A DNA stretch of 64,000 nt. Origin: Chromatiales bacterium. GTDB taxonomy: Bacteria > Pseudomonadota > Gammaproteobacteria > Thiohalomonadales > Thiohalomonadaceae. Both the position numbers and the translations under genes were made by a program. Every line of letters begins with the position of its first letter. Position 1 is the stretch's first letter. Where the stretch lies: the NCBI GenBank assembly GCA_003251535.1, contig QKFD01000024.1, positions 97,837-161,836 on the forward strand, given 5' to 3'. A model generated the notes under the pieces. That model worked only from the letters and a program-made list of their open reading frames with translations. It was not told the origin of the DNA and ran no database searches. This document shows, piece after piece, positions 4,158-41,461 of this stretch.

Positions 4158-4883
4158 ATGACACAGTTAGCACTGGTTATTGATCTCAACGTCTGCGTCG
4201 GCTGCCACGCCTGCGTCACCTCCTGTAAGGAGTGGAACACCTCGGGGCAGGCGGGGCCGATGTTTGACGACAACCCCTATGGCCAAGACCCGACCGGCAC
4301 CTTTTTTAATCGGGTGCAGACCTATGAGATCGGGGAGTTCCCCAACACAGAGACGGTTCACTTCCCCAAGAGCTGCCTCCACTGCGAAGACGCCCCTTGC
4401 GTCCCGGTCTGCCCCACCGGCGCCAGCTTCAAGCGCACGGAGGATGGCATCGTACTGGTGGACTACGACAAGTGCATCGGCTGCAAATACTGCTCCTGGG
4501 CCTGCCCCTACGGCGCCCGCGAGTTTGACGAACAGCAGAAGGTGATGAAGAAGTGCACCCTCTGCGTCGATCGCATCTACGACCAGTCGCTCCCCCCGGC
4601 CGAGCGCCGGCCGGCCTGTGTCATGTCCTGCCCCACCAGCGCCCGTCTGTTCGGCGATGTCCACGACCCTGACTCAGAGGTCTCCATCGCCATCCGCGAG
4701 CGGGGCGGTTATCAGTTGATGCCGGAGTGGGGTACCAAACCGGCCAACCACTACCTGCCACGGCGCAAGACCCGCAAGGTGATCCACGAGGATGAGCTGG
4801 TGCGCTCGGACAACCCGCTGCGCAAAGAGGAGATCGAATCGGAGCACTCCCGCGCTCCGACCCTCGACGACTGGCTCATGTAA
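4158..4883 (+). CDS. soeB: 4Fe-4S ferredoxin-type electron-transfer subunit of the Mo-enzyme complex (SoeB-like)
   Basis: It has four CxxCxxCxxxCP ferredoxin motifs (CVGCHACVTSC, CLHCEDAPCVPVCP, CIGCKYCSWACP, CTLCVDR...CVMSCP). It is 241 aa and lies immediately downstream of soeA. Confidence 0.75.
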   Translation: MTQLALVIDLNVCVGCHACVTSCKEWNTSGQAGPMFDDNPYGQDPTGTFFNRVQTYEIGEFPNTETVHFPKSCLHCEDAPCVPVCPTGASFKRTEDGIVLVDYDKCIGCKYCSWACPYGAREFDEQQKVMKKCTLCVDRIYDQSLPPAERRPACVMSCPTSARLFGDVHDPDSEVSIAIRERGGYQLMPEWGTKPANHYLPRRKTRKVIHEDELVRSDNPLRKEEIESEHSRAPTLDDWLM

Positions 4884-4983
4884 CGCGGCCCAACGGACGC
4901 GCTACGCGAGAGATCCCGTCAGGCGGGGGGGGGCGCCACCCCACCCCGCCGGCGTACAGACGAGATTTTGGGAGAATTACCAC

Positions 4984-5952
4984 ATGCATCCGGCGTTTTC
5001 GGTCATCTTTCTCACCACCCTCATCGGGGTCGGCCAGGGGCTATTCCTGGCACTGGTCACCGGTGAGAGCTACGCAGCGGTCAATCTGCTGCCCCAGCAG
5101 AGCAGCCGCGAGTTCTATGCGGTGGGTGCCCTGTTGGCCATGCTGTTCCTCATCGGCGGCCTCATCGCCTCCATCTTCCACCTTGGCCACCCCGAACGGG
5201 GCTGGCGTGCCGCCACTCGCTGGCGCACCTCCTGGCTCTCCCGCGAGGTGATCGTGCTACCGCTGATGATGGGCCTAGTCTTCCTCTACGGCGTGGTCCA
5301 CTTCTTCGACTGGCATCCTGACCTATTCGGCGTCGGCACGCGGAACCAGCTCACCCTGGTGATCGGGGCCATCGGGACGGTGGTCGCCTTCGCCCTGTTT
5401 GTCTCCACCGGCATGGTCTACGCCTCCATCAAGTTTCTCCAGGAGTGGGCCAGCCCGCTGACGGTAGTGAACTACATCCTGTTGGGCGGTGCCTCCGGCT
5501 TTACCTTCGCCACCGCCTTTGTCGCCTACAACGCCCCAGACTTGGTGACCTTCTACGGCACCTGGGCGATCATCATCACCTTCGCCGCTTTGGTGGGCCG
5601 AGTCGGCTCGCTGTTCCGCAACGCCCGCATCAAGCGCCACTCCAACATCCAGAGCGCCATCGGTGTACGCCACCCCCGGATCCAGCAGAAGGCGATGGGC
5701 TTCATGGGTGGCTCCTACAACACCCGTGAGTATCACCACGGAAAGGGGATCAGCGCCCTCAAGTCGGTGCGTTGGACCTTCCTTATCCTCACCTTTGTCG
5801 TACCGCTACTGCTGCTCTGGATCGGTATCGCCGGCAACGGCACCATCCTGTTAGCCGCCTTCGGGGTGCAGTATGTGGGTCTGCTGTTTGAGCGCTGGTT
5901 CTTCCTCGCCCAGGCCAACCACCCACAAAACCTCTACTACCAAACCATCTGA
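4984..5952 (+). CDS. soeC: Integral membrane anchor subunit (NrfD/PsrC/DmsC-like), SoeC-like
   Basis: The start MHPAFSVIFLTTLIGVGQGLFLALV is chosen within the longer ORF 4792..5952, which overlaps soeB in another frame. The product is highly hydrophobic with multiple predicted TM helices. It is the third gene of the three-gene Mo-enzyme operon. Confidence 0.65.
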   Translation: MHPAFSVIFLTTLIGVGQGLFLALVTGESYAAVNLLPQQSSREFYAVGALLAMLFLIGGLIASIFHLGHPERGWRAATRWRTSWLSREVIVLPLMMGLVFLYGVVHFFDWHPDLFGVGTRNQLTLVIGAIGTVVAFALFVSTGMVYASIKFLQEWASPLTVVNYILLGGASGFTFATAFVAYNAPDLVTFYGTWAIIITFAALVGRVGSLFRNARIKRHSNIQSAIGVRHPRIQQKAMGFMGGSYNTREYHHGKGISALKSVRWTFLILTFVVPLLLLWIGIAGNGTILLAAFGVQYVGLLFERWFFLAQANHPQNLYYQTI

Positions 5953-5978
5953 TCGCCATAGGTGATCGCACCACAAAA

Positions 5979-6004
5979 GGGGCGCCTTGCGCCCCTTTTG
6001 CTTT
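5979..6004 (+). terminator. Rho-independent terminator after soeC
   Basis: GC hairpin ggggcgc-ctt-gcgcccc followed by ttttgcttt. Confidence 0.6.
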
Positions 6005-6057
6005 AGCGGCGCAACCGCCATCCTTAGTGGGCAATCCCCTCATGGGTACCCACCACC

Positions 6058-6732
6058 ATGGAACTCCCCCCCGCCGTACAGAGCGCCCTCCGGGCCGGCC
6101 AGAAGATTGAGGCGATCAAACGGCTACGCGAGGAGTGGGCCATCGATCTCAGCGAGGCCAAACGACTCGTAGAGCAGTGGGAAGGCGAGCCGGCCTCACC
6201 AGCCAACACCCCACCCGCAACCCACGCCCCCAGCCCCCGTCTACCCCTACCAGCCCTACTGCTACTGCTCGCCTTCGCCTGGGCACTGGTCAACGCCGTG
6301 ACCCCGCTGGCGAGCCTGCTGGTGCTGTTCCACCTGGAGCACTACCGCACGGCCCCCTTTATCGTCGAAAGCCTTGAGTATCGAGATGACCCCGAAGAGG
6401 GGTTGCGCTGGGGTTTGGTAGGCCAGGTGGCAGGGAGACACGAGCGGCTCTATGCCCCGAGCCTGGCCGATGGCCACCGCCTCGGCTACCGCGGCCTGCA
6501 ACGTCAGTTCCCCGCCGGCCTGGAGTTGAGGGTGTGGTACAACCCAGAGGTCACCGACACCCTCTTTCAGGGGCGCAGCCTGCGGCTCCTCCCCTACAGC
6601 CCCAACCTGCGAGAGAGCGAACTGGCCCACCTGTATGAGTGGTTTGGCTACTGCCTGCTCCCCCTAGCACTGATCTGGGGCAATGCCGTGGTGTGGGAAC
6701 GCAGGCAGAAAGAGGCGGTAACACGTCGTTAA
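6058..6732 (+). CDS. Hypothetical membrane protein; N-terminal L7/L12 C-terminal-domain-like segment, central TM helix, C-terminal DUF3592-like region
   Basis: ORF of 224 aa. The N-terminus (QKIEAIKRLREEWAIDLSEAKRLVEQWEG) resembles the ribosomal L7/L12 C-terminal motif. It has a hydrophobic stretch (LPLPALLLLLAFAWALVNAVTPLASLLVLF). Codon usage is consistent with its neighbours. Confidence 0.4.
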   Translation: MELPPAVQSALRAGQKIEAIKRLREEWAIDLSEAKRLVEQWEGEPASPANTPPATHAPSPRLPLPALLLLLAFAWALVNAVTPLASLLVLFHLEHYRTAPFIVESLEYRDDPEEGLRWGLVGQVAGRHERLYAPSLADGHRLGYRGLQRQFPAGLELRVWYNPEVTDTLFQGRSLRLLPYSPNLRESELAHLYEWFGYCLLPLALIWGNAVVWERRQKEAVTRR

Positions 6733-6962
6733 AGACCGGCTTGCCGTTGCGCTCAAGTCAGCCCCCACAGTCACCGGCCCCCTCCCGCGACCCAGCGGAT
6801 CGCGCCCCCTCTATGCCCCCATTACCGCTTCCTATTACCCCGCTACCAACATTGTTTTGTATAGTCGCCCGCTGAACCCAGGCCCGGCGCACCAAGGCAG
6901 GGCATGACCGAGCAACGACACTCTTTTCCGGTTCCCGCCAGGGGTAGAGACAGGAGCACACA

Positions 6963-8153
6963 ATGATAAAGCCGCACGGTTCCGACACGCTGAATCCGCT
7001 GTTTGTTTACGACTCAGAAAAGCACGATGCCTTAAAGCATGAGGCGGAAGGCCTCCCCTCCCTACTGCTCAGCTCCGCCGCCGCCGCCAACGCGGTGATG
7101 ATGGGGGCGGGCTACTTCAACCCCCTCACCGGCTACATGAATCTGGCCGATGCCATGGGTGCAGCCGAAAAGATGCTGACCACCTCCGGTCTCTTCTTCC
7201 CGGTACCCGTGGTCAATCTCACCAGCGACGTGAGTGCCATTGAGGGCCACAAGCGCATCGCCCTGCGCGACCCCAACGTCGAGGGTCACCCGGTGCTGGC
7301 GGTGATGGAGGTGGAGGCGATCGAAGAGGTCTCCGCTGAACAGATGGCCTTCATGACCGAGAAGGTGTTCGGTACCACTGACCCGGCCCACCCGGGCGTG
7401 GCAGCCTTCAACTCTCAGGGCCAGAAGCTGCTCTCCGGCCCCATCCAGGTCCTCAACTTCAGCTACTTCTCCGAAGACTTCCCTGACACCTTCCGCACCG
7501 CCGTTGAGATTCGCAACGAGATCGCCGAGCGTGGTTGGGAGAAGGTGGTTGCGTTCCAGACCCGCAACCCGATGCACCGCGCCCACGAGGAGCTGTGCCA
7601 CATGGCCATGGATCGCCTGGGGGCCGATGGCCTGGTGATCCACATGCTGCTCGGCAAGTTGAAGCCGGGCGACATCCCGGCGCCGGTCCGCGACTCTTGC
7701 ATCCGCAAGATGGTAGAGCTGTACTTCAAGCCCAACTCCGCCATGGTCACTGGCTACGGCTTCGATATGCTCTATGCCGGCCCGCGGGAGGCCGTGCTGC
7801 ACGCCCTGTTCCGGCAGAACATGGGGGCGACCCACTTCATTATCGGCCGCGACCATGCCGGTGTGGGTGACTACTACGGTCCGTTCGATGCCCAGAAGAT
7901 CTTCGACGATCAGGTGCCGCAGGGGGCGCTGCTCATCGAGATGTTTATGGCCGACAACACCGCCTGGTCCAAGAAGCTCGGCAAGGTGGTGATGATGCGT
8001 GAGGCCCCGGATCACGTCAAAGAGGACTTCATCACCCTCTCCGGCACCAAGGTGCGTGAGATGCTGGGTCGCGGTGAGGCGCCGCCGCCGGAGTTCTCCC
8101 GTCCGGAGGTGGCCAAGATCCTCATGGACTACTACCAGAGCCTGGATAAGTAA
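6963..8153 (+). CDS. sat: Sulfate adenylyltransferase (ATP sulfurylase), dissimilatory type
   Basis: 396 aa with the conserved QTRNPMHRAHEEL motif and a GRDHAG-type motif. It sits adjacent to the soe and apr genes. Confidence 0.9.
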   Translation: MIKPHGSDTLNPLFVYDSEKHDALKHEAEGLPSLLLSSAAAANAVMMGAGYFNPLTGYMNLADAMGAAEKMLTTSGLFFPVPVVNLTSDVSAIEGHKRIALRDPNVEGHPVLAVMEVEAIEEVSAEQMAFMTEKVFGTTDPAHPGVAAFNSQGQKLLSGPIQVLNFSYFSEDFPDTFRTAVEIRNEIAERGWEKVVAFQTRNPMHRAHEELCHMAMDRLGADGLVIHMLLGKLKPGDIPAPVRDSCIRKMVELYFKPNSAMVTGYGFDMLYAGPREAVLHALFRQNMGATHFIIGRDHAGVGDYYGPFDAQKIFDDQVPQGALLIEMFMADNTAWSKKLGKVVMMREAPDHVKEDFITLSGTKVREMLGRGEAPPPEFSRPEVAKILMDYYQSLDK

Positions 8154-8178
8154 CCGCTACTGCGGCGGGTAACAGGCT

Positions 8179-8206
8179 AGAAGAGGCGCCCTTGGGCGCC
8201 TCTTCT
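8179..8206. terminator. Perfect GC hairpin between convergent sat and CZB genes (bidirectional terminator candidate)
   Basis: agaagaggcgcc-c-ttg-ggcgcctcttct. Confidence 0.45.
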
Positions 8207-8242
8207 GCGTTATGGGGTGATATATCCCGCGCCCTGCGCCCC

Positions 8243-8623
8243 TTAAGGCTCCAGCTCCAGGCTGATACGTGCCAGCTGCGCCTTGATCTGGTGGCTGGCC
8301 TTGGCATATGCCCCCCGGTTGAGGATATCCCGCGCCCCATCCCGATCCCCCTGGTCCACCAAGCGCACGATCTCACCCGCGCTCCGATGAAACTCCGCAT
8401 GGACATCCTTCATACTGGCAAAACGGGGGTGGCTACCGTAGCGAGAACCGCCTTCGCCATGGATCCAGCAGCCGAGGGCACACTGATCATCACGGCGCAC
8501 CGTCTCAGCCTCCAGCGCCTCGCCAGAAGTACCGTCGATATACCCCTCTAGCCGCACCTTCCAGCGGATGTGGGCCTCGATGGCAGACATGAAATCGAAC
8601 TCTTCTTCCAGATTGTTATTCAT
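8243..8623 (-). CDS. CZB (chemoreceptor zinc-binding) domain protein
   Basis: 126 aa. It carries a motif with His...Cys (DDQCALGCWIHGEG and HAEFHRSAGEI) that is consistent with the CZB zinc-binding signature. Confidence 0.5.
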   Translation of the reverse strand: MNNNLEEEFDFMSAIEAHIRWKVRLEGYIDGTSGEALEAETVRRDDQCALGCWIHGEGGSRYGSHPRFASMKDVHAEFHRSAGEIVRLVDQGDRDGARDILNRGAYAKASHQIKAQLARISLELEP

Positions 8624-8955
8624 GGCATCTCCTCATCGATAGCAGGGCCACCCCATGTGAAGCAGCCGTTTAAAGCGCGCACAGTGGGCGTCCAGACCCC
8701 ATACGCATAAACTACGTCACCCTGGACCATGGACCTCTGGCAGATGGACGGAGTGGCGGCTGCCCAAAGGCACCTCCCCTTTCCCACAAAAAGATCTGTG
8801 CCCCCAGAGGGCCAGCGCCCAAGCTACCCCCTTATGGTGATGGTCCACAATGCCACCATAGGACAGAATTTTACATCCCGGTTCAGTGTCTGAACGGGTA
8901 GCTGTTACCATTAAGCAGAGTAAATATCTCGGGTATTCCCCCGAGGGAGAGCACC

Positions 8956-9939
8956 ATGCGAAGAGGCCTTATCGATCCCTTCGGGCGTCGGATTGATTAT
9001 GTTCGACTGTCGGTCACCGATCGCTGTGATCTGCGCTGCTTCTACTGTATGCCGCCAGATTTCCATGACTTTGAGGCCCCCGACCACTGGTTGGATCTCG
9101 ATGAGATCGAGCGGGTCATCAGGGCCTTCAGCGAACTGGGCGTCGGGAGAGTGCGCCTCACGGGCGGCGAGCCCCTCACCCGCAGAGGGGTGCCGGAGCT
9201 AGCGGCACGCCTGGCGGCGCTGCCAGGGGTGGAAGATCTCTCCCTCTCCACCAATGCAATCCAGTTGGAGCGCCACGCCGCCGCCCTGCATCGGGCGGGG
9301 GTGAGCCGGCTCAATGTTAGCCTTGACTCCCTTGATCCGCAGCGCTTCAAGGCGATCACCGGCGGTCCACTGGAGAAGGTGTTACGGGGGCTCTCAGCGG
9401 CCAGTCAGGCCGGCTTCAGCCCCATCAAGATCAATATGGTGGTGATGCGTGGGGTCAATGACGATGAGGTGGAGGCGATGGTCGATTTCTGCATCGCCCA
9501 TGGCTTCACCCTGCGTTTTATCGAGACCATGCCGATGGGGGAGACCGGTCGGGAGGCGAGCGAGCATTTCCTCGATCTACGCGAGGTCAAGGCACGGCTT
9601 GCCCAACGCTACCGCCTGCTGCCTGGGGTGATGCCGGGAGGCGGTCCCGCTCGCTATGTGCGGGTGGCGGGAACAGAGCTGCGCATCGGCTTCATCACCC
9701 CCATCTCCCAGCACTTCTGCGCCAGCTGCAACCGTGTACGGTTGGCGGTGGATGGCACCCTCCACCTCTGCCTAGGCCAAGAGCACAGCACCGAACTACG
9801 CCCCCTGCTACGGGCCGGGATCAGTGACGCGGCACTCAAAGAGGCGATCCAGCAGGCGATCGCCCTCAAACCGGAAAAACATGAGTTCCGCGAACAGCCA
9901 GGCCAGGTGGTGCGCTTCATGTCCATGACGGGTGGCTGA
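8956..9939 (+). CDS. moaA: GTP 3',8-cyclase (molybdenum cofactor biosynthesis protein A)
   Basis: N-terminal radical-SAM motif LSVTDRCDLRCFYCMP. 327 aa. The C-terminal second Fe-S cluster cysteines are present (CASCNRVRL). Confidence 0.9.
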   Translation: MRRGLIDPFGRRIDYVRLSVTDRCDLRCFYCMPPDFHDFEAPDHWLDLDEIERVIRAFSELGVGRVRLTGGEPLTRRGVPELAARLAALPGVEDLSLSTNAIQLERHAAALHRAGVSRLNVSLDSLDPQRFKAITGGPLEKVLRGLSAASQAGFSPIKINMVVMRGVNDDEVEAMVDFCIAHGFTLRFIETMPMGETGREASEHFLDLREVKARLAQRYRLLPGVMPGGGPARYVRVAGTELRIGFITPISQHFCASCNRVRLAVDGTLHLCLGQEHSTELRPLLRAGISDAALKEAIQQAIALKPEKHEFREQPGQVVRFMSMTGG

Positions 9940-31433: not shown

Positions 31434-32567
31434 TCAAGGTAGGCTAGGTAGCCTTACCAGGTCCTTCAACACCCCCTCTAAGCCGGAGTGGACCGTCAGC
31501 TGGCCGATACGCTCGGTCACCCGCTCCAGCACCTCCAGCTCTTTCAAGCGCATCAAGGTGGGGTTGCCCTCCATCATCTTGGCGGTGTTGTGCAGCGAGC
31601 GGGTGGCCGCAGTCTCCTCGCGCCGCCGGATGAGATTGGCCTCTGCCGCCTTCTCCGCCTCCACCACCTGATTGAGGATCCCGCGCATCTCCCCCGGCAG
31701 GATGACATCCCGCACCCCAACGCTGCGGACCACCACCCCCATGCCGGCCAGACGCCGTACCACCCCGGCCTGGATCCCCTGATCCAGGCTATCTTTGTCT
31801 GCCAACAGCTCATCGAGCGTGCGGGTAGCCACCGCCTCGCGCAGCTCCAGTTGCAGCTCCCGATAGAGGAGATCGGCCACACTGGCCACCTGCTGTACCG
31901 CGGCCACCACATCGTCGATGCGGTAGATGGCGAGCAGATTGAGCCGTAGGCCCACCCGATCACGGGTGAGGATCTCCTGCCCATTCACCTCCATGGTCTG
32001 CCAGCGGGTATCCACCACCCGTACCGCCACCCGCTGGCGGGCGCTCCAAAAGCCGTAACTGCCCGGGGCGAGCTGATCCCGCAGCTCGCCGTTGACATAG
32101 AGCAGCCCCACCTGGTGCGCCTCTACCTCGGCACTGGTGAGCACGCAGGTGGCGGCCGGCAGCGCCCGCAGCTGCACCAGCCACTGGGGTGGGACCTGCA
32201 ACTGCTCGCTGATATCGATGGTCTCCACCCGCACCGGCTCCGGCGCCAGCCAGTAGAGGCGCACCCCACCAGGGGGGATCAGGTCGATGAGGTTCGCCCC
32301 CTGAAACACCAGCCCCACCTCATGATCCCCCAGCTGATACGCCGCCAGATGGGGGGCGATGAGCGCCGCATGGGTGGTCAACAGTAGCTTGCCCAGCGGG
32401 TGGTTCAACTCACGCCGGCTGATGTCGAACAGGGTGAAGGAGAGGCGCCCAAAGGGATCGCTCAGGCGATAGTCGCCCGGCCCCAACACCTGCACCAGAC
32501 GCCGACGCTGAAAGAGAAAGGCCCGCTCGTGATCGGCGACCTCTATATATTTCCAAGGACGATACAT
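31434..32567 (-). CDS. SPFH/band 7 (stomatin-prohibitin-flotillin-HflK/C) domain protein without obvious TM anchor
   Basis: The C-terminal half has an SPFH-like pattern (RDRVGLRLNLLAIYRIDDVVAAV...EAEKAAEANLIRRREETAA). Start chosen at MYRPWKYIEV with AAGG Shine-Dalgarno, giving 378 aa. The ORF extends to 32663. Confidence 0.6.
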   Translation of the reverse strand: MYRPWKYIEVADHERAFLFQRRRLVQVLGPGDYRLSDPFGRLSFTLFDISRRELNHPLGKLLLTTHAALIAPHLAAYQLGDHEVGLVFQGANLIDLIPPGGVRLYWLAPEPVRVETIDISEQLQVPPQWLVQLRALPAATCVLTSAEVEAHQVGLLYVNGELRDQLAPGSYGFWSARQRVAVRVVDTRWQTMEVNGQEILTRDRVGLRLNLLAIYRIDDVVAAVQQVASVADLLYRELQLELREAVATRTLDELLADKDSLDQGIQAGVVRRLAGMGVVVRSVGVRDVILPGEMRGILNQVVEAEKAAEANLIRRREETAATRSLHNTAKMMEGNPTLMRLKELEVLERVTERIGQLTVHSGLEGVLKDLVRLPSLP

Positions 32568-32773
32568 GGCTCTACCTTTTGCGGCGCGCCCCCACAGGGG
32601 GCTCCGCGCTGAATTCGAGATAGGGGCAGCCACCGCAACGACGGGGCCGACGACATGGAGCAACGCAGGTCAAACGCTAGAGATCGCCGAGCCGTAACCC
32701 ATGGCTACGCGCAGGACGACTTGGCGCTCTCCCGGCCCTGCCCCAGCGGCCGCCCGCAGCCACCGCCGCAGCG

Positions 32774-32815
32774 GCTACCCGGGGACAACGACACTACTTA
32801 AAGGGGACTCGAACC
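32774..32815 (-). ncRNA. Duplicated tRNA 3'-half (variable region plus T-arm plus acceptor-like tail) immediately 3' of the tRNA-like element
   Basis: Minus-strand sequence TTGGTAGCCCGTTAGGGTGGGGTTCGAGTCCCCTTTAAGTAG. It aligns to the 3' half of the adjacent element (TCGGTAGCC...GGTTCGAGTCCGGCCTTCAGTA). Confidence 0.4.
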
Positions 32816-32892
32816 CCACCCTAACGGGCTACCAAGGTACTGAAGGCCGGACTCGAACCGGCTACCGACTGACTGAGAAGGTCAGCTGCTCT
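32816..32892 (-). ncRNA. tRNA-like element (Arg-UCU-like cloverleaf with non-canonical features)
   Basis: Minus-strand sequence AATGAAG-TA-GCTC-ATTGGGTA-GAGC-AG-CTGAC-CTTCTCA-GTCAG-TCGGTA-GCCGG-TTCGAGT-CCGGC-CTTCAGT-A-CC. It has canonical D-arm (G18G19), T-arm (TTCGAGT) and U8/U33. It also has an extra nucleotide between the D and anticodon stems, C at position 37 and an A2-G71 mismatch. It is located 160 nt downstream of rtcA on the same strand. Confidence 0.5.
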
Positions 32893-33055
32893 ACCCAATG
32901 AGCTACTTCATTGGTGTCCGATGCCACACCACGTTGCCGGTACCTCCCACCCCAGCGGGGCGGAGACCAGGCCGGCCGTTGAACCGGCACCGCTGGCAGT
33001 AGTGGCGGCGACATCAAACTCTGTGGTCCGCCCCGGATCCCGGGACAGAAAATGC

Positions 33056-34147
33056 CTAACCAGCGCCCTCAACCGCGACGCTCCAGACGTCAGTCGCCTG
33101 CTGATCGAGGGTGATGGAACATCCGCTGAAGGCCCGGATCACCTCCAGATTACTGAGCAGGTGGCTACTCGGCCGCACCGTCCGGAAGGTACCACCCGCC
33201 CCTATTACCAACGGCACCAGGAGCTGATCGGCCAGATGCTCCTCCACCTCCACTCCGGCCGCTACTAGGCGCCGCCAGCTGGCCACCGCCAGGCTGGCCA
33301 CCTGCTCAGCGGCGATGCCGATGCGTCCCACCCGCTCGATCACCGTGGCGTGCTGGCGATGGTGCAGACGCAACGAGAGCACATTGCCTGGTCCGGCGGA
33401 GGTCACCACCTCGCTCCGACACCACTCCGACTGCCAATTACAGAGCGCCTGCACCCTCCCCAACTCCCGTTGGGCGATATGGCCGGCGAGCTGGGCGCTG
33501 GTCACCACCGCCTCGCGCCACGCCACCGCTTCCGGCTCCGCCAGCGCCAATGGCCGGCGTTCCCGCCACGGCTGCACCTGCACCTGTAGCTGGCCGCCAC
33601 CCGCCGGATAGAAGCCGTGCCGCTTCAACTCCAGCGTCACCTCGGCCCCCATCTGCCGCAGCAGCGGCAGGAATGAGAGGGCGATAAAGTCACTACTGGG
33701 GGCCATATCGTTGTGGGTCCCCCCCTCTAGCTCCAGGCTGGAGGGGGCCTCCGCCAACAGCAGTGCCGGCAGGATGGTCTGCAACAGCAGCATGGTGCTG
33801 CCGGCACTGCCGATGACAAAGCGATAACTGCCCGCCCGAATCGGCCCTGGCCGAAACTCCACGCAGCTGGAGCCGGCACTATCCCCTACCACCTTGGCAC
33901 CACAGATCGCCTGCGCGGCGCGCACACAGGCGAGGTGCTGGCGCATTAAACCCGGCTTCCGCCGACCGGCCCGGATCTGCTCGATCCGCACCGGCCGGCC
34001 GGTCACCATCGACAGTGACAGCGCGCTCCGCAGGAGCTGTCCGCCCCCCTCCCCGCGCGAGCCGTCTATCGTCAACATCGCTCTATCTCCCATGTTTTCA
34101 CTTGCCATCCGTACCTGTGACTGGACGGCCGTTAACCCTTCACACAC
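33056..34147 (-). CDS. rtcA: RNA 3'-terminal phosphate cyclase
   Basis: 363 aa. N-terminus LTIDGSRGEGGGQLLRSALSLSMVTGRPVRIEQIRAGRRKPGL is the RtcA signature. Overlaps rtcB by 16 nt. Confidence 0.85.
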   Translation of the reverse strand: MCEGLTAVQSQVRMASENMGDRAMLTIDGSRGEGGGQLLRSALSLSMVTGRPVRIEQIRAGRRKPGLMRQHLACVRAAQAICGAKVVGDSAGSSCVEFRPGPIRAGSYRFVIGSAGSTMLLLQTILPALLLAEAPSSLELEGGTHNDMAPSSDFIALSFLPLLRQMGAEVTLELKRHGFYPAGGGQLQVQVQPWRERRPLALAEPEAVAWREAVVTSAQLAGHIAQRELGRVQALCNWQSEWCRSEVVTSAGPGNVLSLRLHHRQHATVIERVGRIGIAAEQVASLAVASWRRLVAAGVEVEEHLADQLLVPLVIGAGGTFRTVRPSSHLLSNLEVIRAFSGCSITLDQQATDVWSVAVEGAG

Positions 34148-35337
34148 ACCACCTGCCGCAGGGTATGCACCACCTCCACCAGCGACGTCTGCGCCGCCAT
34201 CACCGCATCGATGGGTTTGTAGGCCGCCGGGGTCTCATCGATCACGCCGCTATCCTTACGGCACTCCACCCCAGCAGTGGCCGCAACATGCTCCTCCAGG
34301 GTGATACGCCGCTTCGCCTCGCTACGGGACATGGCCCGCCCCGCCCCATGGCTACAGCTATGGAAGCTCTCCTCATTCCCCAGGCCGCGGACAATGAAGG
34401 AGCGCTCCCCCATGCTGCCGGGGATGATCCCCAACTCGCCGTGCCGCGCCCGCACCGCCCCCTTACGGGTGATCCACACCGCCTTACCGTAGTGCTGCTC
34501 ACGGGTGACGTAGTTGTGGTGGCAGTTGATCGCCTCGACATGGGTCTGGAACGGGATCCCGAGGCTGGCGCGCACCGCCGCAATCACCCGCGCCATCATC
34601 ACCTCGCGGTTGATACGGGCGAACTCCTGCGCCCACCCCACCGCTGCCACATACTCACCAAACAGCTCACTCCCCTCCGGTAGGTAGGCGAGATTGCGAT
34701 CCGGCAGCTGGATCATCCAACGCTCCATCTCCCGCTGCGCGAGGGCGATGAAGTGGTTACCGATGCGGTTACCCACACCGCGGGAGCCACTATGCAGCAT
34801 GAACCACACCTGCTGCGCCTCATCCAGACAGACCTCGATGAAGTGGTTACCGCTCCCCAAGGTACCGAGGTGGTGGGCGTTATTGGTCTTGGTCAAGACC
34901 GGATGGCGCGCCTCCAGCTCTCGAAAACCAGGCGCCAACTGCTCACCCCAAGCGGCAGCGACATCGGCCGGCAACTCACTGTTCCAACCGGCCGACCCAT
35001 GGGGCACCGCCGCCTCAATGGCGGCACGCACCCCAGCCAGCTGGTCCGGCAGTTGGGCCGCGCTGAGGGAGCTTTTGACCGCCATCATGCCGCAACCGAT
35101 ATCCACCCCCACCGCGGCCGGGATCACCGCCCCTAGCGTTGGCACCACACTGCCAATGGTCGCCCCCTTACCCACATGCACATCGGGCATCGCCGCGACC
35201 CAGCGGTAGATAAACGGCAGTGAGGCGAGATGCCGCAACTGACGCCGTGCCTCCTCATCAAACGCCACCCCAACGGTCCACGACTTCACCGGTACCCCCG
35301 GGTGGTCGCTCATAACTTCATAACTCTGCCCATCCAT
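34132..35337 (-). CDS. rtcB: RNA-splicing ligase RtcB (3'-phosphate/5'-hydroxyl RNA ligase)
   Basis: Conserved MPDVHVGKGATIGSVVPT, GVDIGCGM and HNY/HGAGR motifs. Start chosen at MDGQSYEV (GAGG Shine-Dalgarno), giving 401 aa. The longer ORF runs to 35502. Confidence 0.85.
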   Translation of the reverse strand: MDGQSYEVMSDHPGVPVKSWTVGVAFDEEARRQLRHLASLPFIYRWVAAMPDVHVGKGATIGSVVPTLGAVIPAAVGVDIGCGMMAVKSSLSAAQLPDQLAGVRAAIEAAVPHGSAGWNSELPADVAAAWGEQLAPGFRELEARHPVLTKTNNAHHLGTLGSGNHFIEVCLDEAQQVWFMLHSGSRGVGNRIGNHFIALAQREMERWMIQLPDRNLAYLPEGSELFGEYVAAVGWAQEFARINREVMMARVIAAVRASLGIPFQTHVEAINCHHNYVTREQHYGKAVWITRKGAVRARHGELGIIPGSMGERSFIVRGLGNEESFHSCSHGAGRAMSRSEAKRRITLEEHVAATAGVECRKDSGVIDETPAAYKPIDAVMAAQTSLVEVVHTLRQVVCVKG

Positions 35338-35406
35338 CGCCTCGACCTCACTGCCTGATGACGTTTCGACCCGGCCCGCTAGCCGGGTCGCGCTCTGGTG
35401 ATTAGA

Positions 35407-35423
35407 TTGCAGAGGCCGTGCCA
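35407..35423 (-). promoter_or_regulatory. Sigma-54 (-24/-12) promoter for rtcBA
   Basis: Minus-strand TGGCACG-gcct-CTGCA with exact GG-N10-GC spacing, about 70 nt upstream of the rtcB ATG. It is divergent from rtcR, which encodes a sigma-54 activator. Confidence 0.6.
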
Positions 35424-35557
35424 ACCTGGAGGCGGAATTCATAAACCTAACAACACTTTGATATTTAAATCCTTTTATCCACCCCCTAGCGTCCCCTTGC
35501 ATGATCTGACCCGCAATGGAATTATCTATCTCGATAACTCATATCGAGAACCATAGA

Positions 35558-37171
35558 ATGAAGACCGTCGTTATTGGTCTGCTGGGGACGGTGCTCGACC
35601 AGCGCGGGCGCTCGGCCAAGCGGTGGGAGAAGTGGCGGCCCACCCTCTCCCTCTGTCAGCACGAGGATCTGCTGGTGGACCGGCTGGAGCTGCTCTGCCA
35701 GGAGCTGTTCCGGCCCTTGGCGGAGCAGCTAGTGGCCGATCTGCGCATCACCTCACCGGAGACCGAGGTGAGGATCCACGCGGTGGAGTTTGCCGATCCG
35801 TGGGACCTCGGGATGGTCTACGGCGCCCTGCACGACTTCGCCCGTGGCTATCCATTCGATCTCGATCAAGAGGAGTACCTGGTCCACATCACCACCGGCA
35901 CCCACATCGCCCAGATCTGCCTCTTTCTCCTGACCGAGGCGCGCTATCTACCCGCCCGCCTGATCCAGACCTCGCCCCCCAAGAAGCCCAACCACCAGCC
36001 CGGCAGCTATCAGATCATCGATCTCGATCTCTCCCGCTACGACGCCATCGCCGCCCGCTTCTCCCGCGAGCAGCGGGAGGGACGCGCCTACCTCAAGGGG
36101 GGCATCGAGACCCGCAATGAGGCGTTCAACCAGATGATCGCCCAGCTGGAGCAGATCTCCATCGCCTCCACCGATCCCATCCTGCTCACCGGCCCCACCG
36201 GCGCCGGCAAGTCGCAACTGGCGCGCCGCATCTTTGATCTGAAGCACTACCGCCAACAGGTGGCGGGACGGCTGGTGGAGGTGAACTGCGCCACCCTGCG
36301 GGGCGACAACGCCATGTCGGCGCTCTTTGGCCACCGCAAAGGGGCCTTCACCGGGGCGCTCAGCGCCCGCAGCGGTCTATTGAAGGAGGCGGATGGCGGG
36401 GTACTGTTTCTCGATGAGATCGGCGAGCTGGGGGGTGACGAGCAGGCGATGCTACTGCACGCCATCGAGGAGAAGCGCTTCCTGCCACTGGGGGGCGACA
36501 GCCAGAGCCGCAGCGACTTCCAACTCATCGCCGGCACCAACCGCGATCTACTGGCCGAGGTGCGCAGTGGCCGGTTTCGGGAGGACCTACTGGCGCGGAT
36601 CAACCTCTGGAGCTACCGCCTCCCCTCACTGCGGGAGCGGCTGGAGGACCTGGAGCCCAACCTCGACTACGAGCTGGAGCGGTTTGCCGAGCGCCGCCAC
36701 AGCCAAGTGGGCTTCAACCGGACGGCACGGGCGACCTACCTCCAGTTTGCCCTCAGCCCAGAGGCGAGCTGGCGGGCCAACTTCCGCGACCTCAACGCCA
36801 GCGTCACCCGCATGGCGACCCTCGCCCCCGGCGGGCGCATCACCCAGGAGGTGGTGACCCAAGAGATCGCCCGACTACGCCACAACTGGGGGGGCACCGA
36901 CACCCCATCGCAGGGCGATCCACGCGCCCTCACCGCCCCTCTGCTGGAGGCCGCCACCCACGCCCAACTCGACTACCTCGAACATGTAGAGCTGGCGGCC
37001 ATTGCCGAGGTGTGTCGCCAGACCGATAGCCTGGCCGAGGCGGGCAGACGCCTCTTTGATCGCTCCCGCGAGCGCAAACGCTCCAGCAACGATAGCCACC
37101 GCCTGCGCCAACGGCTGGCGCGCTACGGCGTGGAATTTGAACAGCTGCGCCGGGCGGCTAAGGGGGAGTAA
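35558..37171 (+). CDS. rtcR: Sigma-54-dependent transcriptional activator RtcR (CARF-AAA+-HTH)
   Basis: N-terminus MKTVVIGLLGTVLDQRGRSAKRWEKWRPTLSLCQ resembles the E. coli RtcR CARF domain. Central AAA+ sigma-54 interaction domain (GPTGAGKS...GAFTGA...). C-terminal HTH. An alternative start at 35516 is possible. Confidence 0.85.
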   Translation: MKTVVIGLLGTVLDQRGRSAKRWEKWRPTLSLCQHEDLLVDRLELLCQELFRPLAEQLVADLRITSPETEVRIHAVEFADPWDLGMVYGALHDFARGYPFDLDQEEYLVHITTGTHIAQICLFLLTEARYLPARLIQTSPPKKPNHQPGSYQIIDLDLSRYDAIAARFSREQREGRAYLKGGIETRNEAFNQMIAQLEQISIASTDPILLTGPTGAGKSQLARRIFDLKHYRQQVAGRLVEVNCATLRGDNAMSALFGHRKGAFTGALSARSGLLKEADGGVLFLDEIGELGGDEQAMLLHAIEEKRFLPLGGDSQSRSDFQLIAGTNRDLLAEVRSGRFREDLLARINLWSYRLPSLRERLEDLEPNLDYELERFAERRHSQVGFNRTARATYLQFALSPEASWRANFRDLNASVTRMATLAPGGRITQEVVTQEIARLRHNWGGTDTPSQGDPRALTAPLLEAATHAQLDYLEHVELAAIAEVCRQTDSLAEAGRRLFDRSRERKRSSNDSHRLRQRLARYGVEFEQLRRAAKGE

Positions 37172-37269: not shown

Positions 37270-38754
37270 CTAAGATCTCTTTCTCCCCCTCCCGGCTGCC
37301 GCTTTGGGGGCGCGATTGGCCAATATCTGCAACTGCGCCAACACCTCGGCCGCTGGCAGCAGCAGCCCTTCGCGTCTCTCCCAGTTACCGATGGTGGGTG
37401 GGGAGACACCAATCAACTGGGCAAACTGGCTCTTGTTGAGACCAAGGCGCTGCCGTAGTGCGGCAACGGCCTCCGCTGTGGGGATGAATGAACCTCTCCG
37501 CCCTGTCTGCGCGGTGGCAGAGGAGTGCGCCGTACCGCCACGTGTCTGCCGCAATGTTGTATTGGCTGGTTTCACAACGCTGGTGCGCTCCGCCACTGGC
37601 TGTGACCTCTTGGCGGATGCCTGCTTGGCCGTACTCGTGCGCGCCGTCACTGGCGTCGCCCTCTTGGCGGACGCCTGTTTGCTTGTGCGTGGCGCCGCGG
37701 GTGCCTCTCTCTTGGCGGATGCCTGCTTAACCGCACCCGTGCGCGCAGTTACCGGCTTCGAGGTCTTAGCCGACGCCTGCTTAACCGCACCCGTGCGCGC
37801 AGTTACCGGCTTCGAGGCCTTAGCCGACGCCTGCTTAGCCGCACCCGTGCGCGCGGTTACCGGCTTCGAGGTCTTAGCCGACGCCTGCTTAACGGTGCCG
37901 GTGGGTGTGGTTACCGGCTCCGATCTTTTGGCTGATGCCCGCTTGGCGGTGCCTGTGCGCGACGCCACTGGGGCGGATCTCTTGGCTGGCGCCCGCTTGC
38001 CACCAGCGGCGCCCGGCGGCGCCGACTCCGCTCCTGTACCAGTGCCCAGCTCCACGCCAAAGATCCCCGAGAGCTGGTCATTGGCCAGCCGGCGGCGGCC
38101 GCTACTGCTGGGGGTTGCGGGTAGCTTGAGATCGGCGGCGGCGATCAGCTCCCGGTGATCCACTCCGCGCAGTTTGAATAGCAGCTCCGGCTGCTCGTCG
38201 AGGCGGGCGCCAACGCCATACAGAACGGCGGCGAGGTGTTTACACATGTCGGCCCAATCGGGACAGCTACACTCCATCTCGATCTCACTCGGCGAGGGGA
38301 ATAGGCCATGTTCTCGATGGGTAACGACCTCCATCACATGGTTGGAGAGCTTGCCTTGCAGTAGTTCAAGCATGGAGCCCACCTCGCCACTGCACGCCTT
38401 GCGCAGCTGCTTCCACTTGGTCGCCGAGAGCGGTTTGATGGTAATGGCGATCTCATAGAGTTCCGAGCCGCTCACTATCGCTTCGATCCGGCCCGGCTGG
38501 ATCTCAAGGTGGCACACCGAGCCGTTGCGCACGTAGGTACGCCCCCGCGGCAACCGGTTGGCATAGTCGCTGAATTTCTCCAGATGGTCGCACCACGCCT
38601 TGCCCCAGAAGGTGTGGACGATGGTGCGTCCACTGATCTCCACCGGGGTGATGAGACGCCCCTGTCTAGCCAGCTGCTGCATCTTGCGTTGGGCATTCGC
38701 ACGCCGCTTATGAACCGGAACGTAGGGTCTCCAACCACGGAAGGACATAGGCAA
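37270..38754 (-). CDS. SWIM zinc-finger protein with Lys/Ala/Ser-rich histone-H1-like tandem repeats and C-terminal XRE-type HTH
   Basis: N-terminal SWIM pattern (CSCPDWADMCKHLAAVLY). Central eight 18-aa repeats (AKxSKPVTARTGAVKQAS). C-terminal HTH (LGLNKSQFAQLIGVSPPTIGNWERREG). Starts 8 nt after the SNF2 helicase gene stop. Confidence 0.6.
   Translation of the reverse strand: MPMSFRGWRPYVPVHKRRANAQRKMQQLARQGRLITPVEISGRTIVHTFWGKAWCDHLEKFSDYANRLPRGRTYVRNGSVCHLEIQPGRIEAIVSGSELYEIAITIKPLSATKWKQLRKACSGEVGSMLELLQGKLSNHVMEVVTHREHGLFPSPSEIEMECSCPDWADMCKHLAAVLYGVGARLDEQPELLFKLRGVDHRELIAAADLKLPATPSSSGRRRLANDQLSGIFGVELGTGTGAESAPPGAAGGKRAPAKRSAPVASRTGTAKRASAKRSEPVTTPTGTVKQASAKTSKPVTARTGAAKQASAKASKPVTARTGAVKQASAKTSKPVTARTGAVKQASAKREAPAAPRTSKQASAKRATPVTARTSTAKQASAKRSQPVAERTSVVKPANTTLRQTRGGTAHSSATAQTGRRGSFIPTAEAVAALRQRLGLNKSQFAQLIGVSPPTIGNWERREGLLLPAAEVLAQLQILANRAPKAAAGRGRKRS
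37610..37981. repeat. Tandem 54-bp (one 48-bp) direct repeats, about 7 copies, within the SWIM gene
   Basis: Near-identical units cttagccgacgcctgcttaaccgcacccgtgcgcgcagttaccggcttcgaggt at 37712, 37766 and 37820, with degenerate flanking copies. They encode the 18-aa K/A-rich repeat. Confidence 0.8.
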
Positions 38755-38761
38755 TCTCCGC

Positions 38762-41461
38762 TTACGTCAATTGACTCTTGTTGATGTCGAGGGTCACGAG
38801 GCCCAGTAAGGTTTCATCATCCATCTCCGTGAGGGGCAGTTCACCACCCTCCCGCAGCAGGTCGTCCGCCAGATGGCGCTTATCGCACAGCAGGGCGTCG
38901 ATCTTCTCCTCAATGGTGCCTCGGCAGATGAACTTGTGCACCAGCACACTCCTCTTCTGACCGATGCGGAAGGCGCGATCAGTGGCCTGGTTCTCCACCG
39001 CGGGATTCCACCAGCGATCGAAGTGGATGACGTGAGAGGCCTCGGTCAAGGTCAGGCCGGTCCCCCCGGCCTTCAGTGAGAGGACGAAAAAGGGCGGCCC
39101 CGCCTCCTGCTGAAAGGCATCGACCCGCTGTTGGCGCTGCGCCACGGGGGTACCGCCATGCAGGATCAGTCCAGGGCGACCAAACTGCTCAGCCAGAAAA
39201 CGGGCCAGCGGTTCGATGATCTCGCGGAACTGGGTGAAGACCAGAACCTTCTCCTGCCGTGCGGCGATCTCCTCGCATAGCTCCGCGAGCCGCAGAAACT
39301 TGCCGCTCATGGCGGGCTCAAAGCGCCCATCTCCCACCAGCTGAGAGGGGTGATTGCAGATCTGTTTGAAGCGCAGCAGATAACTCAGCACCAGACCCCG
39401 GCGCTCTATGCCATCCAAGGTTTCGAGCCCCCGCTTCAGCTCCTTCACCGCCTGCTGATAGTGGGCCGCCTGCACCTTGGAGAGACCACACCAGGCCGCC
39501 ACCTCGGTCTTCTCCGGCAGATCCGCGATGATGCTCCGATCGCTCTTGAGACGCCGCAAGATGTAGGGCTGGGTCAACTGGCGGAGTGGCGCATACGGGT
39601 CATGGGTGCGGGCGGCCAGCCCCTTCGCAAAGGTCTTGAAGCGGCTACTACTGCCGAGCAGACCAGGATTGAGGAAGTCGAACAGCGACCAGAGATCAGC
39701 CAGGCTATTCTCCACCGGCGTGCCGGTGAGGGCGATGCGGGCGTCGGCCTCGATCTGTTTGACCGCCTTGCTCTGACGGGTGGCGGGATTCTTGATGGCC
39801 TGCGCCTCATCCAGCACCAGCAGACGCCAGCGCCGCTGGAGCAGCCAGGCGCGACGGGTGAGGGTGTGGTAGGTGGTAAGGAGTAGATCGCAATCGACCA
39901 GCTCTGCCTCATCCTCGCCCCCCTGCCCGCCTTTGGTATGGGAGGTGTGCACCACGCTGTAGCGCAGTGAGGGGGCAAAGCGTGCAAGCTCCGCGGCCCA
40001 GTTGGCCAGCAGCGATGCCGGCAGGATCAGTAGCGACGGCCGGACCTCCCCTTTGGGTGTGTGGCGCTTGAACAGCAGCAGCAGGGCGATCACCTGGAGG
40101 GTCTTACCAAGCCCCATATCATCGGCAAGGCAGGCGCCTAGCCCGAGCCGCGAGAGCAGCCAGAGCCAGCGCACCCCCTGCTCCTGGTATGGGCGCAGGG
40201 TCGCCCGCAAGTCGCGCCCCAGTTTCACCGCGGCAATGGCGGCGGGAGAGCGCAACTGGGTCAGTAGCTCAGCCAGCTGCGCACTCGGCTCCACCCGCGA
40301 CCACTCGCGCACCACCTCAGTGCCGTTATCGCGGTCAAGCTCGGCGTTGCTCCCCGCCAACAACCGCATCCCCTGAATGAAGCTGAGGCCATCGTGGCCC
40401 ACTTCGGACTCCACCCGCCGCCAGTGGGCCAGCGCCTCCTGCATCCGCTCCTGGTTGACCTCTACCCACTGCCCCTTGAGGAAGATGAGGCCACTCTGGG
40501 CGCGCAAGAGGTTAGCCAACTCCTGCTCGCTGAGGGACTCCTCACCGATGACTACCTGGAGTTTGAAGTCGAGCAGTGCAGCGGCATTGAAGCCCCCTTG
40601 AGGGGCCCCGCCGATGCGGACAGCCACCTGCGGTCGGCTCCGTTTACGCCACCAGTCGGGTAGACGTACCACCAGGCCGCACTCTTCGTAGAGGGCGGCC
40701 TCACGCAAGAAGCGGTACGCCTCCTCCGCCGTCCAGGCAAGCGGATGGTAGAGGTCGCCCGTGGCCAGCAGATCCGCCACCAGGGGGCTCGCCTCAGCGG
40801 CCCGCTGCACTGGCGAGAGTAGTCGAATCAGTGCCTGTCGATCCTTGGCCTGGGCATACTCCGTCAGCGCCTGGTGCAGCGGCTGATAGCGCTGACCGCC
40901 CTTGCCACTCGGCCCCTCGGTGGGGACGTAGGTCGCCATGAAGGCGAAGGGAAGCTCAGGGTCGCGGGGGTTCTCCGCCAGATGGAAGCAGACCCGTCCC
41001 GCCGAGTGCCACTGGGGTGCCCGCTGGCGGAGCAGCGCTGCCAGCGAGCCGTGGCTGCGGATCGCCTCGCAGACCCACGCATCCAGCTGACACCAGATCT
41101 GCTGTAACCCCTCTCTTGATAGGTACTCCAGCCCCGGCATGGGCGGCGCGCCCTGACGCCACTGATCGATCTCCACCTCCGTGAGCTGGGGCAGCGGCTG
41201 GGTCTGCTCCACCCCCTCCTCTAACCGGCAGCGCCCGCTTAAGTAGTGGGTAGCAAAATCGTGCCAATAGCGCAGCACTGGGTCGAGTCCTGCGCCGGGT
41301 TTATCGGCCGCCAGGGTAAACAGCCCCTCAGCGGGATCACGGCTCAACGCCTCCAGCAGAGCGGCCCCGTTGGAGGATGTCGCTTCGCCGTCGCCAGGGA
41401 AACAGTGGAGGCGGCCTGAAGGCAGCAGTCCGAGGGTGCATGGGGTGGGATGGTTGGCCAC
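38762..41461 (-). CDS. SNF2-family DEAD/DEAH helicase with N-terminal bacterial SNF2-associated domain
   Basis: 899 aa. Helicase motifs DDMGLGKTLQ (I), DEAQAIKNP (II) and C-terminal helicase motifs (QRVDAFQ...TDRAFRIGQ). Confidence 0.8.
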   Translation of the reverse strand: MANHPTPCTLGLLPSGRLHCFPGDGEATSSNGAALLEALSRDPAEGLFTLAADKPGAGLDPVLRYWHDFATHYLSGRCRLEEGVEQTQPLPQLTEVEIDQWRQGAPPMPGLEYLSREGLQQIWCQLDAWVCEAIRSHGSLAALLRQRAPQWHSAGRVCFHLAENPRDPELPFAFMATYVPTEGPSGKGGQRYQPLHQALTEYAQAKDRQALIRLLSPVQRAAEASPLVADLLATGDLYHPLAWTAEEAYRFLREAALYEECGLVVRLPDWWRKRSRPQVAVRIGGAPQGGFNAAALLDFKLQVVIGEESLSEQELANLLRAQSGLIFLKGQWVEVNQERMQEALAHWRRVESEVGHDGLSFIQGMRLLAGSNAELDRDNGTEVVREWSRVEPSAQLAELLTQLRSPAAIAAVKLGRDLRATLRPYQEQGVRWLWLLSRLGLGACLADDMGLGKTLQVIALLLLFKRHTPKGEVRPSLLILPASLLANWAAELARFAPSLRYSVVHTSHTKGGQGGEDEAELVDCDLLLTTYHTLTRRAWLLQRRWRLLVLDEAQAIKNPATRQSKAVKQIEADARIALTGTPVENSLADLWSLFDFLNPGLLGSSSRFKTFAKGLAARTHDPYAPLRQLTQPYILRRLKSDRSIIADLPEKTEVAAWCGLSKVQAAHYQQAVKELKRGLETLDGIERRGLVLSYLLRFKQICNHPSQLVGDGRFEPAMSGKFLRLAELCEEIAARQEKVLVFTQFREIIEPLARFLAEQFGRPGLILHGGTPVAQRQQRVDAFQQEAGPPFFVLSLKAGGTGLTLTEASHVIHFDRWWNPAVENQATDRAFRIGQKRSVLVHKFICRGTIEEKIDALLCDKRHLADDLLREGGELPLTEMDDETLLGLVTLDINKSQLT

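Follow-up and report, generated by a model that had tools for sequence, protein, structure and literature searches.

The RNA described here is encoded downstream of rtcA, in a 64,000-nucleotide stretch of a Chromatiales bacterium genome (GenBank contig QKFD01000024.1, positions 97,837 to 161,836; hereafter, the window), and two tRNA-like RNAs already described provide the closest terms of comparison. The first is the band 7-associated tRNA-like RNA (b7a-tRNA), predicted by Burroughs and Aravind in 2016 (Nucleic Acids Res 44:8525): according to the summary given by Wang et al. (bioRxiv 10.1101/312249), it strongly resembles authentic tRNA, is found next to Band-7 and RtcB, and appears functionally redundant with YrlA. 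The second is YrlA itself, a full tRNA-like RNA, which is processed, together with the T-arm-only YrlB, from one precursor (Chen et al. 2014). The window element very probably belongs to the first class, known here through the description by Wang et al.: it is a cloverleaf, it features a co-oriented Band-7 neighbour in an RtcB neighbourhood, and it is homologous to other Band-7-associated copies. All features described for b7a-tRNA in that summary are shared, and no difference is established by the comparison with it.

An earlier interpretation of the same DNA, made from its letters and open reading frames (the sequence-only reading), had proposed an Arg(UCU)-like cloverleaf on the rtcA strand. 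Two tools bear this out: ARAGORN calls a tRNA-Arg(tct) on the minus strand, at 32836..32912, and the Rfam tRNA model (RF00005) matches 32838..32912, on the same strand, with 48.4 bits (gathering threshold, 29). The sole other tRNA of the window, a tRNA-Gln, scores 61.4 bits with this model. The interval first assigned to the element, 32774..32892, misses the initial 20 nt of the cloverleaf, whose start is at 32912, 143 nt past the rtcA stop (33056) and in the orientation of rtcB and rtcA; the placement downstream of rtcA, on the same strand, was therefore right, and the distance of about 160 nt was not. The reported non-canonical features are real. In the Rfam alignment, pair 2-71 is a non-standard A.G, and the anticodon loop needs a 2-nt insertion, resulting in a 9-nt loop on a 5-bp stem; an equivalent parse gives a 6-bp anticodon stem with the 7-nt loop CUUCUCA, that is, anticodon UCU with C37. 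The 3' end encodes A-CCU, while the tRNA-Gln of the window encodes CCA. A covariance model including both the cloverleaf and a second, downstream module (R1; 16 seed sequences, one of which is the window) matches 32794..32913 with 91 bits (E ~1e-20). The element is far beyond chance, and is kept across phyla.

Conservation was evaluated on a set of loci (L001-L160) composed of 80 genome loci, collected via RtcA, and 80 metagenome loci, collected via the Band-7 protein, where the best matches are 53–57% identical. Counts relating Band-7 and RNA refer to the 86 Band-7 loci whose upstream sequence measures 500 nt or more. ARAGORN, with default settings, finds a co-oriented tRNA within 800 nt upstream of Band-7 in 76 of these 86 loci, and a T-arm search finds a match upstream of Band-7 in 84. 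Four gene orders are observed: rtcB-rtcA-RNA-band7, as in the window; RNA-band7-rtcB-rtcA; RNA-band7-rtcA-rtcB; RNA-rtcB-band7-rtcA. The position of the RNA tracks Band-7 across gene orders: the conserved partner of the RNA is the Band-7 gene, not rtcA. The sequence-only reading had looked to conservation downstream of rtcA in related Chromatiales; the element is widely kept in relatives, but it is linked to the Band-7 gene, which had been missed. In the window, this gene begins 270 nt after the cloverleaf, on the same strand. Band-7 genes also occur in the rtc loci of cultivable bacteria, e.g. Microbulbifer, Pseudoalteromonas, Undibacterium and Pseudomonas aeruginosa. The closest relative found, an additional locus (L161), encodes a Band-7 protein 66% identical to that of the window, in the same gene order. 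There, the operon continues (5374-9134) with RlaP (PF10127; in Pfam, an RNA-repair-pathway nucleotidyltransferase), followed by a HipB/HipA toxin-antitoxin pair and by an AbiEii gene, a conflict-system neighbourhood.

Within L001-L160, Rsr is present in 19 loci and Band-7 in 98, with zero overlap, and this mutual exclusivity suggests that the two proteins occupy the same functional slot. Rsr loci carry YrlA-like T-arm/D-arm elements instead (e.g. L013, L007, L061). For the window, the absence of rsr stated by the sequence-only reading is upheld, as tblastn with a Pfam-verified Rsr query reveals no Ro/TROVE homologue in the whole 64 kb: the locus appears as a Ro-less counterpart of the YrlA situation. 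Like YrlA and YrlB, the window RNA features a tRNA-like D/T-arm elbow and resides in an RtcR-controlled rtc operon; moreover, the presence of YrlA and YrlB on one precursor parallels that of a cloverleaf followed by a second T-arm module. It is not, on the other hand, a YrlA. The YrlA model of Rfam (RF02553), a check suggested by the sequence-only reading, gives 17.9 bits, well under its gathering threshold of 69; YrlA carries, on a Ro-binding stem made of its 5' and 3' ends, a tRNA-like domain permuted into the order T-arm, closed acceptor-like stem-loop, D-arm, whereas in the window RNA the order is that of a canonical cloverleaf read 5' to 3', anticodon arm included, and Rsr is missing. Membership in the YrlA family was rejected on these three counts.

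The cloverleaf is conserved as a structure. In an alignment of 52 distinct homologues, 96.5% of the cells are paired, compared to 75.5% in column shuffles and 31–43% in slid controls; compensatory changes are found in 15 of the 20 pairs, and the observed score is reached by none of 500 shuffles. The D-stem and the T-arm core are invariant. Anticodon loops depart from 7 nt in 15 of the 52 sequences (29%), being 5, 6, 8 or 9 nt long, and the 37 seven-nt loops hold 16 different triplets, with A37 in 34 and U33 missing in 11. Among 46 close copies of the acidobacteria type, the anticodon loop shows 24 variants, corresponding to 4.03 bits, and the T-loop, which has the same length, only 4 (1.16 bits); the variability of the D-loop is similarly high as that of the anticodon loop. 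Nor is the anticodon kept at the syntenic position: it is GUA in L161, UGU in L005 and UUU in L004, while L002 features a 6-nt loop. L161 shares with the window a nearly identical D-arm and upstream domain and a closely similar T-arm, but its anticodon arm, GCCAG-CGGUAAC-CUGGC, is wholly different, corresponding to GUA with G33. Since both triplets and loop lengths vary, and GUA in L161 takes the place of UCU, the RNA is not a decoding tRNA, and the label "Arg(UCU)" is incidental; a tRNA mimic, rather than an ordinary tRNA gene, had been anticipated, and the variation across homologues agrees with it. In another locus (L084, 2550-2704), an insertion of about 23 nt turns the anticodon arm into a long extended hairpin, a further sign that the arm is not decoding.

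These data bear directly on the possibility that the element is a functional spare, or a nuclease-resistant tRNA-Arg(UCU), induced with the repair operon in order to replenish damaged tRNA. Likeness to a canonical tRNA-Arg(UCU) is evident in the cloverleaf, in the D- and T-arm consensus and in the UCU triplet of the loop; the Rfam tRNA threshold is passed, some members look canonical (L004, a Lys-UUU with 67.7 bits, and L120, with 68 bits), and tRNA arrays adjoin some of the units. Yet the window copy has a 9-nt loop, or C37, in addition to A2.G71, does not encode CCA as the tRNA-Gln does, and has an anticodon which is not conserved, being replaced by other "anticodons" or by malformed loops at the orthologous position. 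Furthermore, the equivalent of pair 1-72 is unpaired across most of the b7a-type family (42 out of 52 sequences; C.A in 28). A spare tRNA is thus a very improbable explanation. A C.A mismatch at 1-72 is otherwise typical of bacterial initiator tRNA. Only 15 of the 52 homologues encode A-CCA; in these, it comes after the 6-bp stem and overlaps with the hairpin located next to it (CCAGU..ACUGG).

The variability of the anticodon loop is also what a bait, or decoy, might display. According to this explanation, toxins directed against tRNA (anticodon nucleases) would cleave the tRNA-like arm and spare real tRNAs, and loop variation would track the toxins met by each lineage; in a variant of it, 5' fragments with 2',3'-cyclic phosphate would bind the CARF domain of RtcR and amplify the induction of the operon (Hughes et al. 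2020). The anticodon loop is indeed the most variable segment (24 variants compared to 4 for the T-loop in the 46 close copies; 16 triplets overall), 70% of the loops have the canonical 7 nt, most of these with A37, and tRNA gene arrays adjoin some units. Loops of other lengths and the frequent loss of U33, however, look like relaxed constraint, and a similarly high variability is found in the D-loop. Reports on YrlA may be read in both directions, as it was suggested to be a competitive inhibitor of the nuclease, but is left uncut by the Salmonella enzyme (Hughes et al. 2020). Moreover, an RNA located inside the induced operon cannot be the first sensor, and a bait leaves the obligate Band-7 partner and the second module unexplained. 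Because the heterogeneity in loop length fits relaxed constraint better than faithful mimicry, the bait ranks second among the explanations considered, and is held to be unlikely.

Downstream of the cloverleaf, a copy of the 3' half of the tRNA had been noticed. The second T-arm is real; rather than the product of a duplication event, it is part of a conserved, covarying module (module 2). A second T-arm is found 42–66 nt past the first one in the window and in about 20 other loci (L001-5, L081-84, L086, L110, L120, L121, L123, L128, L132, L142, L145, L157, L161), in a common layout: GG(U)AA(A), which may be preceded by a hairpin with a 7-nt loop (H), then hairpin P2a and T-arm 2. Hairpin H is absent in the window, L110, L128 and L161. 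Scores obtained with R1 are 86–135 bits for the members of the sub-class and 60–135 bits for other Band-7-linked copies, several of which are seeds; outside the seeds, L161 reaches 90.9 bits. An alignment of both modules from 18 sequences contains 7 helices and is 95.8% paired, compared to 75.6% in shuffles, none of 500 shuffles being equal; compensatory pairs are 23 out of 33 (4 of 5 in H, 4 of 4 in P2a, 1 of 4 in T-arm 2; L161 has GAGGG/CCCUC in module 2). This alignment was fitted to R1 and leans, as a consequence, to the structure of the model, while in a MAFFT version module 2 is out of register. No consistent pairing was found by eye, across members, for an acceptor-like stem formed by the tail with the segment before GGUA. 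The presence of a conserved GG before a hairpin and a T-arm suggests an elbow of the D-loop/T-loop type.

Conservation of module 2, with compensatory changes, indicates a conserved module and not an attachment-site (att) scar. The sequence-only reading had considered, as an alternative, a tRNA gene in decay whose 3' end had been duplicated as an integrase att site, and the 11-mer GGTTCGAGTCC, an exact repeat with similar flanks common to both T-loops, could be taken as such a trace. No island, however, separates the two copies, which are only 44 nt apart; none of the nearest genes encodes an integrase (Band-7, directly downstream, is followed by a cytochrome c gene and by a 605-aa open reading frame without Pfam match); and module 2 is kept in about 20 loci of different lineages. 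An att remnant was accordingly excluded, no integrase being nearby, the repeat being only 11 nt long and module 2 being conserved: the residual chance assigned to it is negligible.

The conserved RNA extends well beyond the two modules. Upstream of the cloverleaf lies a domain of 83 nt, in which AGCGG is followed by a CCGG..CCGG hairpin, whose loop is of the GGUUC type, then by CUGG, another hairpin and an invariant GUACC (32943..32939). RNAalifold, run on 21 upstream sequences, predicts two hairpins, with compensatory changes in 7 of 10 pairs. This domain is common to proteobacterial and acidobacteria-type loci, and its GGUUC-loop hairpin is the third of this kind. Downstream, a structured leader reaches the ribosome-binding site of Band-7: a long-range helix, between about 32786-32779 and about 32608-32601, closes a domain of about 170 nt and is conserved with L161, as are blocks of sequence, as judged by eye, GGGUAGCC pairing with GGCUGCCC in both. 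An analogous long-range helix joins CAUCGAGGUGA and ACCUCGACC in loci of the acidobacteria type (among L087-L160), where L143 and L150 carry a compensatory CGGGG/CCCCG. Domains closed by these downstream helices, in the window and L161 and in the acidobacteria-type loci, measure about 170–250 nt. For the intergenic RNA as a whole (479 nt), the folding z is -3.62, a level matched by none of 100 shuffles. The element is only the core of a conserved, structured intergenic RNA of about 480 nt. Rfam 15 contains no family for the element or its flanks: the generic tRNA model alone matches, with 39–68 bits. The extended architecture and the two-elbow sub-class, both outside Rfam, may be undescribed.

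A long conserved leader could also work in cis. In such a case, the cloverleaf would be a site for RNase P and RNase Z, and the structure of about 480 nt a 5' untranslated region, separating, stabilising or regulating the mRNA of band7, or of the operon, with no trans-acting RNA. The distance from the cloverleaf to the next open reading frame, typically about 260–450 nt and up to about 510 nt (L128, L132), is compatible with it, as is the location of the RNA before rtcB in two loci (L029, L036); conserved structure, including long-range helices, reaches the ribosome-binding site, and many loci place the RNA at the head of what is transcribed from the sigma-54 promoter. The conserved elbow nucleotides of D- and T-loop and the second T-arm, however, exceed the needs of a processing site, and the mutual exclusivity with Rsr and its Y RNAs suggests equivalence to the RNA of a trans-acting ribonucleoprotein (RNP). 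A 7-bp stem matters for RNase P (Chen et al. 2014), and an acceptor stem of effectively 6 bp, with 1-72 unpaired, is a poor determinant for this enzyme. A role in cis only is considered improbable, slightly more so than the bait.

The coordinates of the features are reported in Table 1. The RNA is co-oriented and syntenic with an rtcBA operon under RtcR/sigma-54 control, as the sequence-only reading had it, rtcR, rtcB and rtcA being identified by Pfam. The rtcR product, whose N-terminal domain is of the RtcR/CARF type, is a sigma-54 enhancer-binding activator, encoded divergently from the rtcB-rtcA operon. A sigma-54-type site precedes the rtcB ATG (35337) by about 70 nt; the count of such patterns across the window is at chance level, so that the promoter call depends on position. 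In loci where the RNA comes first, equivalent TGGCAC-N5-TTG sites precede the cloverleaf by 110–180 nt. The conserved CUGG...GC located shortly before the cloverleaf was considered as an internal sigma-54 promoter, and rejected: the GG-N10-GC spacing is only found in the window and in L001, not in L004, L005 or L081, and the motif is a covarying hairpin instead. Between rtcA and the RNA, neither a sigma-70 promoter nor an intrinsic terminator was found; the whole of 32300..35800 is free of terminator-like sites and, on the minus strand, of sigma-70-like sites, which makes read-through from rtcA plausible. The length of rtcA is supported by a 340-aa gene call in an identical public contig (L167). 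The start of the Band-7 gene is the ATG at 32567, rather than an upstream TTG, as taken from an identical public protein (P0001). With this start, the gene-free gap between rtcA and Band-7 measures 488 nt (33055..32568); no protein gene is located inside it, as stated earlier, and its size had been underestimated at about 390 nt.

Table 1. Features of the rtc/Band-7 region in the window; positions are those of the 64,000-nt stretch.
Feature	Position	Strand	Basis or remarks
rtcR	35516..37171	+	Pfam RtcR 1e-83, Sigma54_activat 5.9e-46
Sigma-54-type promoter-like site TGGCAC-GGCCT-CTGC	35409..35423	minus	pattern search, 1 mismatch
rtcB, RNA ligase	34132..35337	minus	Pfam RtcB 1.1e-126; start inferred from translation
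rtcA, RNA 3'-phosphate cyclase, 340 aa	33056..34078	minus	Pfam RTC 6.6e-76
Upstream RNA domain, 83 nt	32913..32995	minus	alignment of 21 loci, RNAalifold
tRNA-like cloverleaf (module 1)	32838..32912	minus	ARAGORN and Rfam tRNA
Acceptor stem of cloverleaf	32912-32906 with 32845-32839	minus	
D-arm of cloverleaf	32903-32888	minus	
Anticodon arm of cloverleaf	32886-32868	minus	"UCU" at 32878-32876
T-arm of cloverleaf	32862-32846	minus	end of cloverleaf at A32838
Module 2 (linker CCUU, GGUA, P2a, T-arm 2, tail)	32794..32837	minus	R1 model, covariation
GGUA of module 2	32833-32830	minus	
Hairpin P2a, GCCC-GUUA-GGGU, 4 bp	32829-32818	minus	
Second T-arm, GGGG-UUCGAGU-CCCC	32817-32803	minus	
Downstream structured leader, up to the Band-7 ribosome-binding site	32568..32793	minus	fold, and conservation by eye
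SPFH/Band-7 ("slipin family") protein, 377 aa	31434..32567	minus	Pfam Band_7 3.2e-28

Other genes are found near the unit, in the window and elsewhere. Next to rtcR, on the minus strand, the window encodes a 494-aa protein with a C-terminal Xre/MqsA-like helix-turn-helix domain (37270-38754) and an 899-aa SNF2-family helicase with DUF3670 (38762-41461). In several loci, long tRNA gene arrays (5 to 22 genes, co-oriented) are located directly upstream of the b7a-tRNA/Band-7(-RtcB) unit (L086, 85-1991; L089, 438-2566; L110, 534-2339; L120, 690-1517; L157, 285-1763), while in L037 an array is found downstream of rtcB (4214-5380): tRNA gene arrays appear to be physically linked to the repair module.

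The Band-7 protein shows, by eye, no predicted membrane anchor. Its AlphaFold2 model (predicted local distance difference test, 85.7) begins with three beta repeats, which are followed by an SPFH domain and by a long helix, an architecture which may be described as a "mini-MVP", with reference to the major vault protein (MVP). Foldseek, queried with this model, returns stomatin and HflK/C as top matches, and aligns MVP over the full length of the Band-7 protein, in 410–467 columns, gaps included, with E ~1e-10 to 1e-11; these matches may point to a soluble protein that forms a cage or a ring. Homologues of this type are counted in thousands: 6436 of 8000 candidates scored reach E <= 1e-20. Rsr shares its TROVE domain with TEP1, which, together with MVP and vault RNA, forms the vault. 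In both systems an SPFH-type cage protein would pair with a small structured RNA. The Band-7 protein differs in having only three repeats and 377 aa; in addition, vault RNAs are not tRNA-shaped, and the top Foldseek matches are not MVP. It is conceivable, though doubtful, that the whole 488-nt rtcA-band7 region acts as one large multi-domain RNA, in which the upstream domain, a cloverleaf with a freely varying anticodon arm, the second T-arm elbow and a closed downstream domain succeed one another, and forms, with a soluble mini-MVP-like SPFH cage, a bacterial "mini-vault" RNP. Such a particle would serve RtcB by sensing broken tRNAs or by handling them, and its variable anticodon arm would be an evolving nuclease bait.

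Given the observed identity, conservation, structure, synteny and Rsr exclusivity of the RNA, the best overall explanation, and a reasonably probable one, is that a b7a-tRNA is produced from the RtcR/sigma-54 operon as the partner RNA of Band-7. The RNA would be transcribed from the RtcR/sigma-54 promoter, within an rtcB-rtcA-[RNA]-band7 operon whose co-transcription is presumed. It keeps a tRNA-shaped body, made of an acceptor stem of 6–7 bp, invariant D- and T-arms forming the elbow, and an anticodon stem, having lost the constraints of decoding; in the sub-class, a second elbow-like module (GG, hairpin and T-arm) and flanking structured domains are added. The soluble vault/stomatin-like SPFH protein encoded beside it would be its cognate, binding partner, and the two would form an accessory RNP of RtcB/RtcA repair, in the role played elsewhere by Ro (Rsr) with YrlA/YrlB. 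The tRNA shape would serve to engage tRNA-handling factors or damaged tRNAs. For this mechanism, in which the RNA is an RNP cofactor with Band-7, the chances are judged to be even, or slightly better.

Several points weigh against this explanation. The case for the putative partnership with Band-7 is one of synteny only, and the long conserved leader in which the RNA is embedded, and which runs up to the ribosome-binding site of Band-7, would fit a cis-regulatory or processing role as well. In the two loci which are exceptions to the rule, L029 and L036, the RNA is upstream of rtcB, in the same operon, and does not adjoin Band-7. In the acidobacteria-type soil metagenome loci (L087-L127 examined; e.g. 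L091, 4194-5333), RtcB, RtcA and RtcR are absent within 3 kb: a link to RtcB is, accordingly, not found everywhere, and the RNA-Band-7 pair can stand apart. As to the class, b7a-tRNA had no experimental validation as of 2018, according to Wang et al. (bioRxiv 10.1101/312249), and no study of this RNA later than 2018 was found in the literature searched. A 2026 paper only notes an SPFH gene (PaFlo8) within the rtc locus of P. aeruginosa. In L091, the only locus scanned among L087-L127, a gene for an AAA-type ATPase follows Band-7.

The window element adds a member to the b7a-tRNA class, known but only computationally predicted. The class, in turn, gains a quantified association between RNA and Band-7, structures backed by covariation, a two-T-arm sub-class, and evidence that the conserved RNA far exceeds the length of the cloverleaf; the sub-class, the flanking domains and the quantified variability of the anticodon arm are possibly new details. 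There is also a practical side: as ARAGORN and the generic Rfam model call such elements tRNA, spurious isoacceptors, e.g. "tRNA-Arg(UCU)", can contaminate gene sets. RtcB/RtcA operons are widespread, and the Band-7/b7a-tRNA pair is an unstudied alternative to Ro and Y RNA; the structures reported offer a concrete basis for telling apart the roles of tRNA mimicry as a scaffold, as a bait or as a processing signal.

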